This document shows, one piece after another, positions 1,324 through 55,591 of a DNA stretch of 58,523 bases. Origin of the DNA: an uncultured Blautia sp. (GTDB lineage: Bacteria > Bacillota > Clostridia > Lachnospirales > Lachnospiraceae); NCBI GenBank assembly GCA_946545425.1, contig CAMNNM010000001.1, positions 1 through 58,523 of the forward strand. The letters are read 5' to 3'. Made by a program: the position numbers and the translations under genes. Position 1 is the first letter of the stretch. Each line of letters opens with the position of its first letter. The notes under the pieces are model-generated. The model did not search any database. It saw nothing but the letters and a program-made list of their open reading frames with translations, and was not told the origin of the DNA.

Positions 1324-2645
1324 TAATCTTCCGGTTTCTGAGTCGGGGTTGGGTCTGCTTTGGCGGGTTTTTCCCTGGGGGTATCGCTGTCGGCGGCACC
1401 GGATGAAGGCGCGGGCGTTGGCGTAATTGTTGGCGCCGGCGTTCCGCTTGCCCCTGGTTCCGGAGTCGGAGAGAGCTGTATCCTCAGTTCTGCTTCCGTA
1501 AAGTAACCGTTGTCCGCAAGCATTTCATAATTATCCTGGTCGATCACTTCGGTGTCCACAAAGATCGTGCTGACAATTTTTACTCCATTGTCGTACATTT
1601 CATAATCCGAAATTTCCGGATCTTCGCTCCCCTTCAGCAGCGTATGCACCGTCTCGGCACATTTCTGCGCAAGTATCCTGTTGTCCAGGAATACGGCAGA
1701 CCCGATCGAACCTGAGGCGATTTTCTTGATCGTCTCAAGCTTGCGTCCTGCTGTGGTGATATAGGGCAGTTTTTCTTCTTCCCTGAGATCCTTCAGAATT
1801 TCAATGGCATAGTCCTCGTCCGCAGTAATAAGGATATCCGGCACTCCGCCTTTATAAAATTCGGTACGGATCTTCTCAAACCGGTCCGCGGCACTTTTTT
1901 TATCGGAATCCATGACGGCAGTCTCGTCAAAGGACATAAGACCTGACGGTATGGAAAGAACGCCCTTTTCTATTGCAGGCTCCAGGACTTCCATCAGTCC
2001 GTTGTAGAAGAACAAAGACTGAATGCTGTCAGGCGCGCCCATCAGCATCTCCATTTTGAGAGGCCGGACAACCGGCGCCGTGCTTTCCTGTGAAATGCCC
2101 ATGGCGGCAAGGATCTTTTCGCCAGCCTGGTTTCCCACCGACCTGGCGTTAAAAGCCATATAGTAATCCAGATCGCCCGTATCCATGATCAGGGTATCGT
2201 AAGAAAATACAGGAACCGATTTCTCATCCGCAGCCACAAGCTCATCGCCAAGAGAATAAGCATCAACGGGTGCAATGACAAGCGCCGACACGTCCTGCTC
2301 CAGCAGTTCTCTGAACTGCTGCTTCTGAAGATCGGCGTCATTCTCTGCATATTGGATCAGCGGTAAAAATCCATAATCATCCAGCTTGATCTGCATTCCG
2401 GCCGCATCGATTCTCCACCTTGCATCCCACTGCTCGGAAGGAAGAAGGATTCCGATCTTTTCTGCATTTTCCGGATCAACCTGCTCCGGGACATCCGTTT
2501 CGGCATCCGTATCTGCACCGTTTCCCTGCTGTTCTGTCTCCTTACTCTCGCCCGCGTCCTTTGTTGCCCGGCTTCTGCTGCATGCCGTTGAAAAAACAAG
2601 CATGGATGTCAGCGACATCAGAAGCACGAATTTCCATCTGTTCAT
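1323..2645 (-). CDS. orphan sugar-ABC substrate-binding lipoprotein (ChvE/XylF-like, degenerate pocket) with Pro/Thr-rich tail
   Basis: Lipobox VFSTAC; GILLP..RW, ALVIAPVD, YDNGVK motifs; SD GAAAGG before ATG 2645. Confidence 0.8.
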   Translation of the reverse strand: MNRWKFVLLMSLTSMLVFSTACSRSRATKDAGESKETEQQGNGADTDAETDVPEQVDPENAEKIGILLPSEQWDARWRIDAAGMQIKLDDYGFLPLIQYAENDADLQKQQFRELLEQDVSALVIAPVDAYSLGDELVAADEKSVPVFSYDTLIMDTGDLDYYMAFNARSVGNQAGEKILAAMGISQESTAPVVRPLKMEMLMGAPDSIQSLFFYNGLMEVLEPAIEKGVLSIPSGLMSFDETAVMDSDKKSAADRFEKIRTEFYKGGVPDILITADEDYAIEILKDLREEEKLPYITTAGRKLETIKKIASGSIGSAVFLDNRILAQKCAETVHTLLKGSEDPEISDYEMYDNGVKIVSTIFVDTEVIDQDNYEMLADNGYFTEAELRIQLSPTPEPGASGTPAPTITPTPAPSSGAADSDTPREKPAKADPTPTQKPED

Positions 2646-3516: not shown

Positions 3517-3545
3517 ATTATACAAAAGCCTACCTGACTTTTCAA
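3517..3545 (-). promoter_or_regulatory. sigmaA-type promoter
   Basis: TTGAAA(3545-3540)-17 bp-TATAAT(3522-3517). Confidence 0.7.
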
Positions 3546-3605
3546 GTATTTTCAGAAGGAAACTTTTTTCGGACAAGAAATATGCATTGCCATATTTCAT
3601 AGTGT

Positions 3606-3638
3606 AAAAAAAGGACTGCTTCAAGCAGTCCCTTTTTT
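3606..3638 (-). terminator. intrinsic terminator of the alpha operon
   Basis: ggactgct-tca-agcagtcc hairpin flanked by A7 and T6. Confidence 0.85.
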
Positions 3639-3647
3639 ACGCGATGA

Positions 3648-4184
3648 TCAGACCAGTTCAAGAACGACCATCATAGCGGCGTCACCGCGGCGCGGTCCGA
3701 TCTTGACGATTCTTGTATAACCACCATTACGGTTTACATATTTCGGTGCGATCTCGCTGAACATCTTCTCGACCATGTCAACATACTTGGTGTTTTTCTT
3801 GCGGCCGGCTCCCTTTTCGGGAACTTCCTTGACCGGATAGAAAACCTTCAGCATCTGACGGCGTGCATGCAGTCTGGAAGGAGAATCCTTTTTGATCTGT
3901 TTCTGAACTTCATCATAAACAGTCTTCTTCTTGCCGTCTACAACTTCCTTTACACGTTTTCCGTCGGCGTCCTTGCGCGGAACCTTTGCGGTAACGGTAA
4001 CGTTCTCAAAGTTGTCTTTCTCACGTACGGCAGATGCGATCAGGCCTTCCGCGATCTTTCTGACTTCCTTTGCCTTTGTCTCAGTCGTAACGATCCTGCC
4101 TCTGTAAAGAAGCATGGTTACCTGGTTCCTGAGAAGCGCTTTTCTCTGATCTGATGTTCTTCCTAATTTTCTATACTTTGCCAT
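3648..4184 (-). CDS. rplQ: 50S ribosomal protein L17 (with internal insertions)
   Basis: [21 protein letters not shown]...TTETKAKE...[17 protein letters not shown]; GGAGG SD. Confidence 0.97.
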
Positions 4185-4198
4185 ATTTTCCTCCAATT

Positions 4199-4302
4199 CC
4201 GGGACGGAAAGACACGCTTGTTCGGACTTACTGTCTGTCCGCCGGCTCCCGGATCCATTTTTCTTACACAGACACGCTGGTTACGGACTTACTGTCTGTA
4301 TA
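4199..4302 (-). repeat. tandem duplicated hairpin motif upstream of rplQ
   Basis: agacacgcttgttcggacttactgtctgt (4210-4238) and agacacgctggttacggacttactgtctgt (4270-4299). Confidence 0.85.
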
Positions 4303-4310
4303 GCCAATAA

Positions 4311-5270
4311 TTATTCTTCTGACGGTTTCAGCTGAAGTCCAAGCTCTTTGAGCTTCGAGAGCACCTCTTCGAGAGATTTGCGTCCGAGGTTGCGCACCTT
4401 CATCATGTCTTCCGACGTCTTGCTGCAAAGTTCCTCAACCGTGTTAATGCCGGCGCGCTTCAGGCAGTTATAGGAACGTACAGACAGCTCAAGCTCATCA
4501 ATGGACATTACCATTGCCTTCTCAACACTGTCATTGCGCGGCTCGACCATGACCTCGGCGGTCTTCGCATTCTCGGAAAGATCGATGAACAGGCTCAGAT
4601 GCTCACTGAGCACCTTTGCTGCAAGGCTGACTGCCTCATCCGGATCGATGGTTCCGTTGGTGTATACGTCGAGCGTGAGTCTGTCATAATCTGTGATCTG
4701 ACCGACACGGGTATTTTCGATCGTCATATTGACACGTTCTACCGGAGTATAGATTGCATCAACGGCAAGCACTCCGATCGGCATGTCGGCAGACTTGCCC
4801 TTATCCGCGCTCACGTATCCACGACCGTTGGTGATCGTCATCTCCATCGCAAGACGGCAGTCCTTTCCGCCGTTCAGCGTGGCGATAACCTGATCAGGAT
4901 TCATGATTTCAATCGAGGAATCAACTTCAATATCAGCAGCGGTCACGACACCCTGACCTTCGCGCTCGATATAAGCAGTCTTCGGCTCATCGTCATTGGA
5001 TGTATTTTTGATCGCAAGGTTTTTGAGATTCATGATGATCTCGGTAACGTCTTCCTTGACGCCCGGGATTGAACTGAATTCATGAAGAACTCCGTCAATC
5101 TTGACCTGGCTTACTGCCGAACCCGGAAGAGACGACAGCATGATTCTTCTGAGAGAATTTCCAAGGGTCGTACCATAACCGCGCTCAAGAGGCTCCACAA
5201 CGAATCTCCCGAAACGTTTATCTTCTGACATCTCAGTAATTTCTATCTTCGGTTTGTTGAAATCAAACAC
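4311..5270 (-). CDS. rpoA: RNA polymerase alpha subunit
   Basis: [17 protein letters not shown]; [14 protein letters not shown]. Confidence 0.98.
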
Positions 5271-6780: not shown

Positions 6781-7052
6781 GTACTGTTTCCTCCATTCCA
6801 AACTGGATATTTCTGATAATTTTGAAAGCCTTCCGCCGTACATCACTTACAGATATTCTGTAAGGTGAAATGGGATGCATCACGCGGTACCTTTCCTGTC
6901 CTAACTGGGGTGTCTCGGTCACACCCAGCCGTCACCGGCGTTTTGACGGCCTTTCCGAATCTTCAATGGCCTGCGGCCATCTGCCTCTCGGTATTAGGCA
7001 ATACATGCTTCAGTCTGACACGGCAGAAGAACTGATCTGCCTGATGAGTATG
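6781..7052 (-). promoter_or_regulatory. multi-hairpin intercistronic RNA between rpmJ and rpsM
   Basis: Six short inverted repeats in 270 nt, no credible ORF. Confidence 0.45.
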
Positions 7053-7166
7053 TCAACCCTGACGCTGTTTGTGCTTCGGATTCTCACAGATGATCCTGAT
7101 CGATCCTTTTCTCTTGATGACCTTGCATTTTTCGCAGATCGGTTTGACAGATGATCTTACTTTCAC
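7053..7166 (-). CDS. rpmJ: 50S ribosomal protein L36 (Zn-binding type); absent from ORF track
   Basis: GTG start, [37 protein letters not shown]; AGGAGG SD. Confidence 0.97.
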
Positions 7167-7284
7167 CGGAAATCCTCCTTCCAATTGTGAGATGTGCCAT
7201 GTTCAGGCCCGGGTCAAGACCCTCACATAACAAAAGCCTGCAGTTCCGGTGTGCCTGTACAAGGTTCACAGGCACGCACAGTCT

Positions 7285-19974: not shown

Positions 19975-20188
19975 CTCCTATTCGTACTCTTTTAAGCAGT
20001 ACGACAAGCGGCGACTGTACACATCTCCGTGTGTGTCCATACTCTCCGGATCACACACCCCATCCCGAACGATGGCATCTGAACTTGTACAGTGACTTGT
20101 CGTCAGTTTATAAACTTGACATTCGCTCCACGGAAAACCCGTCTCTATGGACGGCAACCTCTCGCTTCATAGCTATCATGCCACAGCA
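19975..20188 (-). promoter_or_regulatory. S10-operon structured leader RNA (Firmicutes rpsJ leader type)
   Basis: mRNA contains AUGAAGCGAGAGGUUGCCG...GGUUUUCCGUGGAG..UGUCA, resembling Firmicute S10 leaders as I recall them; further long stems downstream. Confidence 0.65.
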
Positions 20189-55518: not shown

Positions 55519-55591
55519 GCTGCCGTGGCTCAGTCGGTAGAGCGTCGCCTTGGTAAGGCGGAGGTCACGGGTTCGATTCCCGTCAGCAGCT
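55519..55591 (+). tRNA. tRNA-Thr(GGT); CCA not encoded
   Basis: Cloverleaf: D arm gctc/gagc, anticodon loop ttGGTaa, T arm acggg-TTCGATT-cccgt. Confidence 0.95.

Follow-up and report, generated by a model that had tools for sequence, protein, structure and literature searches.

Among described systems, the L17-Actino-Proteobacteria leader (Eckert and Weinberg 2020, PMC7247131; Rfam) is a conserved-loop hairpin upstream of rplQ, the bL17 gene, with a ligand predicted from the single gene downstream. It is the precedent for L17 among ribosomal protein leaders (r-leaders), and, according to the same source, L17 leaders have so far only been predicted. It occurs in other phyla, its loop is of the UACCUGAUACGG type in the 23 rows listed, and neither its model nor its loop consensus matches the locus studied here. 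The L17 downstream element (L17DE, RF01708; PMC2864571) is likewise a structured RNA beside rplQ, found in Firmicutes and proposed to serve L17 feedback, but it lies downstream of the gene, in Lactobacillales and Listeria, and its model has no match here. Some r-leaders, those for L20 and S15 among them, mimic rRNA: the mRNA carries a copy of the rRNA site and so competes with it for free protein (PMC7247131). These differ from the present case in protein and fold, and the mimicry proposed below is not significant by sequence alone. The uS4 operator in the alpha operon of Escherichia coli, with its proposed second site, and the S4-Clostridia leader (RF03140) belong to the same operon, in which rplQ is controlled apart from rpoA, but both precede rpsM, the E. 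coli operator is a pseudoknot, and neither shares a likeness with the motif studied here. The control of rplQ, lying as it does behind an rpoA that is regulated separately, is a question of long standing (PMC10931766).

One published candidate comes closer. HMP2_6386 (Fremin and Bhatt 2021, PMC8040213 supplement) is an unnamed 36-nt element with 52 instances in Ruminococcus lactaris/torques, Dorea, and Blautia. It lies within 25 bp of rplQ in 20 instances, and its size, hosts, and place fit the Shine-Dalgarno (SD)-proximal unit described below; compared by listed length, hosts, and position, it probably covers one clade's version of that unit. It differs in having one covarying pair and neither name nor function; "L17" is absent from the main text of PMC8040213, and the listed table rows contain no family-wide range, tandem units, or rRNA comparison. 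A Roseburia candidate from the same source, HMP2_3720 (45 nt, within 5 kb of rplQ), may be another piece of the motif. Our search (most subscription papers and the 30 leader candidates in the PMC11109978 supplement lay outside it) found no paper describing a Lachnospiraceae rplQ leader, and the searched parts of the PMC7247131 supplement held no match to the motif consensus. The statement in the original prediction that it knew of no such described leader has to be qualified by the unnamed HMP2_6386, listed upstream of rplQ in Dorea/Ruminococcus-type Lachnospiraceae.

The window, by which we mean the whole 58,523-nt stretch of DNA analyzed, carries the spc/alpha cluster on its minus strand, with rplQ as the last gene before a terminator-like hairpin. 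The rpoA-rplQ spacer, 126 nt on the minus (mRNA) strand, holds two hairpin units. The features are as follows.

4311 to 5270, minus strand: rpoA, RNA polymerase alpha, named by sequence and operon order; the spacer begins at its stop codon
4265 to 4302, minus strand: unit 1, the upstream hairpin, with a 10-bp stem; a recent duplicate in this lineage (model score, 28.7 bits; member of the training set)
4275 to 4292, minus strand: conserved loop of unit 1 (family consensus R-UAAG-H-CC-RAN-N(1-4)-GC-R)
4247 to 4253, minus strand: 5' strand of the basal helix P1, with compensatory changes relative to genus relatives
4205 to 4241, minus strand: unit 2 (P2), the SD-proximal hairpin and the copy common to relatives (41.2 bits; member of the training set)
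4215 to 4231, minus strand: unit 2's conserved loop, of which the first 8 nt are like 23S 2807-2814; a lone G-C pair joins loop position 5 and the penultimate base
4198 to 4204, minus strand: 3' strand of P1, ending 3 nt short of the SD
4190 to 4194, minus strand: rplQ Shine-Dalgarno sequence GGAGG
3648 to 4184, minus strand: rplQ, encoding bL17 (178 aa; PF01196)
3882 to 4019, minus strand: rplQ codons about 56 to 101, a conserved bL17 insertion of ~46 to 50 residues that is unaligned in any solved bL17 match
3605 to 3640, no strand assigned: terminator-like hairpin past the end of rplQ, flanked on either side by T/A runs, from sequence; predicted on the plus strand only
6900 to 6955, minus strand: S4-Clostridia leader (RF03140; Rfam) at the head of the same operon, unlike the rplQ motif
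20097 to 20178, minus strand: S10-Clostridia leader (Rfam)
55519 to 55591, plus strand: tRNA

A short rpmJ (L36)-like ORF also lies between infA and rpsM (7053 to 7184, minus strand).

The stem of unit 1 has 10 bp, including one G-U pair; unit 2 is paired at 9 of 10 stem positions, with one C-U mismatch, and its loop ends 30 nt before the rplQ ATG. P1, a 7-bp helix, encloses unit 2 and stops 3 nt before the GGAGG. Across their core the two units are identical at 28 of 30 positions (BLAST E value, 0.003), which bears out the original prediction of two copies of one motif in this spacer. The same prediction took the stems of both copies to pair, as they do in unit 1, but did not flag the mismatch in unit 2; its basal closure of 6 bp ending 4 nt from the SD is correct on that count and becomes 7 bp ending 3 nt away in the fuller one. 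Folding z-scores against shuffles were -3.5 for unit 1, -2.6 for unit 2, and -2.8 for unit 2 with its basal helix; the whole spacer scored only -1.5 and does not stand out from shuffles. A loose 13-mer search with 2 mismatches allowed found 2 occurrences versus 1.04 expected, which is the chance level, so the case rests on conservation and covariation and not on the repeat alone. BLAST and model searches of the source genome (88.6% complete) revealed no copies beyond the two units; with few copies per genome and a single context, the element does not behave as a dispersed (REP-like) repeat. A check against Rfam, suggested with the prediction, returned no family for the motif, either in the spacer, where nothing was found even at an E value of 10, or at 20 related loci.

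By loop pattern we selected 146 distinct units, 124 of which were aligned; the 22 left unaligned comprised near-duplicates, rows that had been parsed wrongly, a single false match, and some units with bulged stems. In the 124-row alignment, 88.8% of cells pair, compared with 59.4% in shuffles and no more than 45% in slid registers, and double changes occur in all 12 pairs, including all 11 stem pairs. RNAalifold recovers the P2 stem, and each of the 11 stem positions pairs in 112 to 141 of the full 146 units. The loop is 15 to 18 nt long, and its conservation is partly built in by the loop-based selection of units. Independent of that selection is the covariation of the lone loop pair, formed by position 5 and the penultimate base, which is G-C in 116, A-U in 11, G-U in 2, and A-C in none of 129 units. 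Loop positions 8 and 12 are C-G in 108 of these units, U-A in 4 (all of the U8 cases), and unpaired in 17; this pair is broken in both units of the window. G-U cells outnumber A-C cells (160 versus 44), an excess that favors the mRNA strand. The covariation that the original prediction proposed to look for is therefore present in all 11 stem pairs and in the lone loop pair, and the mRNA strand carries the covarying secondary structure by which r-leaders are recognized. Single-strand folding predicts that loop position 1 pairs instead with the penultimate C; we rejected this pairing, since at position 1 an A faces C in 24 cases and U in none.

P1 covaries within the genus group, where one position changes from G-C to C-G and the next is U-A in 10 and C-G in 5 of 18 distinct strand pairs. 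Across the family it is irregular, and its margin over shuffles exceeds 1 kcal/mol in 41 of 64 cases. Reading by eye, we saw an inserted hairpin that splits P1 at seven loci (L096, L122, L126, L130, L132, L169, and L201), with the outer part still pairing just before the SD, and at three others (L046, L112, and L118) the 5' partner of P1 changes together with an altered SD region.

A covariance model of the hairpin (model R1) matched 83 of 151 Lachnospiraceae genomes, sampled at about one per genus, with 107 matches in all; up to 26 of the searched genomes are represented in the loci that supplied training rows, and some of the named training loci may be duplicates. All matches but one (106 of 107) share the strand of rplQ and precede it by no more than 186 nt, the position at which an r-leader is found. 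An rplQ match was present in 142 genomes, and we read the spacer in 138 of them (of the other four, three were truncated, and in one rplQ was not behind rpoA). A pattern-plus-stem rule detected a single unit in 53 spacers, two in 38, and none in 47; applied to the reverse strand the rule gave 0 hits, and to shuffled sequence 0.49 per set. Of the unit-less spacers, 31 are 50 nt or shorter, three are R1 matches missed by the rule, and five carry a variant form. The variant, seen at L143, L166, L179, L184, L187, and L218, consists of a short stem, YUANG-CYGAA, an 8- to 10-nt or hairpin insert, GCA-NN, and the strand that closes the stem. It has an additional YUA/UAR helix, is kin to the main motif, and is missed by R1. 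Within the genus, 17 of 18 other genomes yielded the locus, with one unit each; the L018 locus ends before rpoA.

Outside the family, R1 matched 3 of 95 genomes of the order, one match being a genuine unit upstream of rplQ (in family f21, where L225 is another case) and two lying in coding sequence. In the class sample, 1 of 147 genomes gave a weak match, again in coding sequence, and the loop was found in none of 70 further Clostridia rpoA-rplQ spacers. Weak R1 matches away from rplQ (G047, G190, G236, and G274) all fall within coding sequence and were taken as chance. A pattern scan of metagenomes, which covered 3 of 64 parts and 119 loci, placed 74 of 75 stem-bearing matches next to rpoA/rplQ and 0 of 44 stem-less ones. 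The sole stem-bearing match elsewhere (L440, 251 to 269, minus strand) lies in AT-rich DNA after a short ORF and is probably due to chance. Viral contigs gave 27 pattern matches, 1 with a stem and none beside rplQ, and neither the R1 genome searches nor the metagenome scan found the motif before other ribosomal protein genes. In this comparison across Lachnospiraceae and Clostridia, of the kind that the original prediction had advised, the motif is conserved family-wide and is neither missing from relatives nor scattered as a generic repeat.

In 65 of 89 complete spacers, 30 to 37 nt separate the end of the final loop from the ATG; the distance of that loop from the rpoA stop varies from 29 to 124 nt (10th to 90th percentile). 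In a few spacers the units are more than 100 nt from the SD. At four loci (L088, L089, L094, and L116) both units lie 66 to 230 nt from the start codon, displaced by a long inserted hairpin or other sequence. Two assemblies, G041 (L033 and L197) and G046 (L150 and L151), have two rplQ loci each, perhaps through bin contamination, and in G041 a unit is present at both. By position and structure the motif belongs to the r-leader class, as a putative member with respect to binding. It is a real family-wide RNA motif, and its fold differs from those of the catalogued L17 elements.

On a quick RpoA-plus-bL17 tree of 152 rows, the source genome is nested in a clade (SH-aLRT, 98) whose 28 other rows each have one unit. 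The stems of its two units agree at 13 of 16 positions, the highest value among 40 two-unit spacers; a second isolated two-unit case (L034) agrees at 10 of 16, and the remaining two-unit spacers agree at 0 to 8 and look older. The duplication in the source genome is recent and independent of the other two-unit cases. The two-unit state undergoes 16 changes on the tree, at least 8 of them forced by well-supported branches, in a labeling of unit number that includes some rule errors (L117 and L215). These changes indicate that two sites are recurrent but optional. Of the two-site operator originally envisaged, then, the arrangement recurs in the family, but the second copy is not needed, since genus relatives have one. 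Spacing between units clusters at 34 to 35 nt and 56 to 62 nt, with 61 nt in the recent duplicate of the source genome.

Since the source genome has no assembled 23S rRNA, we used the rRNAs of relatives. Numbering was mapped to E. coli 23S with a +1 offset, set from what we take to be the 23S landmarks; helix names and pairings are likewise those we assume. The 23S site survey parsed 31 of 33 Lachnospiraceae loci, an uneven draw made up mostly of the best matches to one relative's 23S end. The resemblance to helix 101 suggested in the original prediction did not survive this survey: where E. coli has GUAAG in the strand concerned, 29 of 31 Lachnospiraceae 23S rRNAs have GGAAG, and covariation joins the C of the loop's "GC" to the final G of UAAG, whereas the pairing in helix 101 would be to the lower stem. 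The best profile match to the first eight bases of the loop was 23S 2807-2814 in all five complete Lachnospiraceae 23S rRNAs. This segment, which we take to follow the 3' strand of H98 and to begin H99 (the H98/H99 junction), reads GUAAGACC in 28 of 31; at 2811-2889 the pair is G-C in 30 cases with a single A-U, and all 31 have G2890. Among 28 other Clostridia, the UAAG of 23S is constant and 2807 varies (G in 23, A in 2, C in 2, and U in 1), and position 1 of the leader loop varies as 2807 does (G in 103, A in 24, C in 1, and U in 1). The 8-12 loop pair parallels 2814-2886.

An equally good 8-mer arose by chance in 17% of simulated 16S-plus-23S sets and in 0.5% when the comparison was restricted, post hoc, to domain VI. 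The H98/H99 match fits in sequence and in partner pairing and is not significant by sequence alone (chance, 0.17); it also requires a circularly permuted topology, and the leader's inner pairs are mostly broken. The loop may well copy the H98/H99 junction. Other rRNA sites were rejected. The tip of helix 96 shows a strong likeness in some genomes (G147 and G014), with a 3' side that differs in two of three same-genus 23S rRNAs (G001 and G002); for the H71 loop, for 16S around 1090, and for 23S around 1339 and 1300, the matches were linear only and scored lower. Model R1 searched against rRNA found no meaningful match.

In published work bL17 is placed at H47, H61, H100, "H10," and H57 (PMC11354259), and the equivalent of the 23S 3' tail touches uL3, uL13, bL17, bL19, and bL32 (PMC5694952); the available parts of these two papers name no bL17 contact at H98/H99, and our literature search for nucleotide-level bL17-rRNA contacts found none. 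The nearest named relatives of the bL17 encoded here are mostly labeled Blautia. Its insertion is predicted to form a long β-hairpin (mean pLDDT, 82). About 53 of 118 sampled Clostridia have a long bL17, a form present in none of the matched solved structures. We speculate that the insertion could reach the H98/H99 junction. A link between insertion and motif was dropped: in Clostridia outside the order, the motif is absent from 40 of 40 genomes with long and 30 of 30 with short bL17, so their co-occurrence says nothing.

We propose that the motif is a feedback operator through which bL17 would repress rplQ translation, a reading of ligand and repression that we hold to be probable, if by no wide measure. 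With rplQ the only gene downstream, bL17 is the likely ligand by the single-gene principle (PMC7247131). We infer that the loop is a protein site, and likewise each step from binding onward. Free bL17 would bind the hairpin loop, with P2 standing in for H98, RUAA for the linker, and the G-C pair and following purine for 2811-2889 and G2890. Bound bL17 would then hinder 30S loading beside the SD, either sterically or by locking P2 on P1, and rplQ translation would be repressed separately from the S4 leader at the operon head. A second unit, optional and having arisen more than once, might add avidity or cooperativity.

Ensemble energies gave no support for a simple switch coupled to P2. When P2 was forced, opening of the -20 to +3 region cost more in 26 of 89 spacers and less in 34, and spacers with units were not more occluded than those lacking them (medians, 4.7 and 4.4 versus 5.4 kcal/mol; P = 0.19). 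The initiation site of the source genome is strongly closed (9.4 kcal/mol), and an anti-SD hairpin is present in some predicted folds. Placing a ribosome at the rpoA stop lowered the cost at unit-less sites from 5.4 to 2.6 kcal/mol and left unit-bearing sites nearly unchanged (4.7 to 4.6).

This last result, the missing energetic switch, and the fixed spacing to the SD would all suit a structural element that needs no ligand, whether a standby site or enhancer setting rplQ initiation apart from rpoA or a mark or protection of a processed mRNA end. We nevertheless think such an element unlikely: a single-stranded loop that hardly varies and has one isolated covarying pair, carried on a freely covarying stem, exceeds what stability or enhancement would need, and the repeated duplication of the loop-bearing unit better fits a binding site. 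That site could in principle be a true H98/H99 mimic and yet serve another 50S protein at the 23S 3' tail (uL3, bL32, or uL13), with rplQ cross-regulated from another operon. The match at 2807-2814 is compatible with this, and uL3 presumably lies near 23S 2810-2811. In addition, uL3c, uL13c, and bL32c contact the equivalent tail, and an extension of uL13c fills in for a lost H98 (PMC5694952). Such cross-regulation is quite improbable, however, given that the motif was found before no other ribosomal protein gene and that an operator for uL3 or uL13 would be expected before its own operon; the S10 operon here has its own leader.

A second uS4 site, extending alpha-operon control past rpoA, would accord with the S4-Clostridia leader in this operon and with E. 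coli, where the synthesis of bL17 is repressed by uS4 and a second site upstream of rplQ has been put forward, though not on strong evidence (PMC10931766). The motif has no likeness to the S4-Clostridia leader in sequence or structure, which makes a uS4 site very unlikely. Its best 16S profile match is also weak (8.4 bits) and lies near position 1090, which we take to fall outside the uS4 site. Neutral duplication or a generic repeat is scarcely credible for the motif. The duplication in the source genome is recent, with 13 of 16 stem positions identical, but family-wide conservation, covariation, and rplQ-exclusive placement refute this explanation for the motif itself, and solely the extra copy of the source genome could be neutral.

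Returning to bL17 as the ligand, we offer a more elaborate scenario tentatively, regarding it as doubtful. The ~50-residue β-hairpin of clostridial bL17 would reach the H98/H99 junction, a contact that appears in no solved ribosome; Lachnospiraceae would have copied this junction, circularly permuted, into a single hairpin operator and then duplicated it repeatedly into a cooperative two-site switch. If this scenario is right, bL17 could be tested directly as a translational repressor for the first time, and a new protein-rRNA contact would have been predicted from an mRNA motif; if the mimicry holds, a role could be assigned to the unstudied clostridial bL17 insertion. The element is ~40 nt long, well defined, and common in a dominant gut family, and it exists in natural one-site, two-site, and no-site versions, so that both the ligand and the value of the second site are directly testable.

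No terminator or promoter was predicted in the spacer on the mRNA strand. In each of four metatranscriptome runs from four studies, the 4 of 11 RNA data sets that were compared, one RNA contig spans rpoA, the spacer, and rplQ, contigs from which strand, ends, level, and a single transcript are not readable. Among the 40 differences listed, out of 51 between these contigs and the window, none falls in the spacer. The contigs end at 3628 to 3640 in three of the four runs, with no cover at 3534 to 3600. At one related locus (L105), a TwoAYGGAY RNA (RF01731) lies downstream of rplQ on the opposite strand (2166 to 2331, minus strand).
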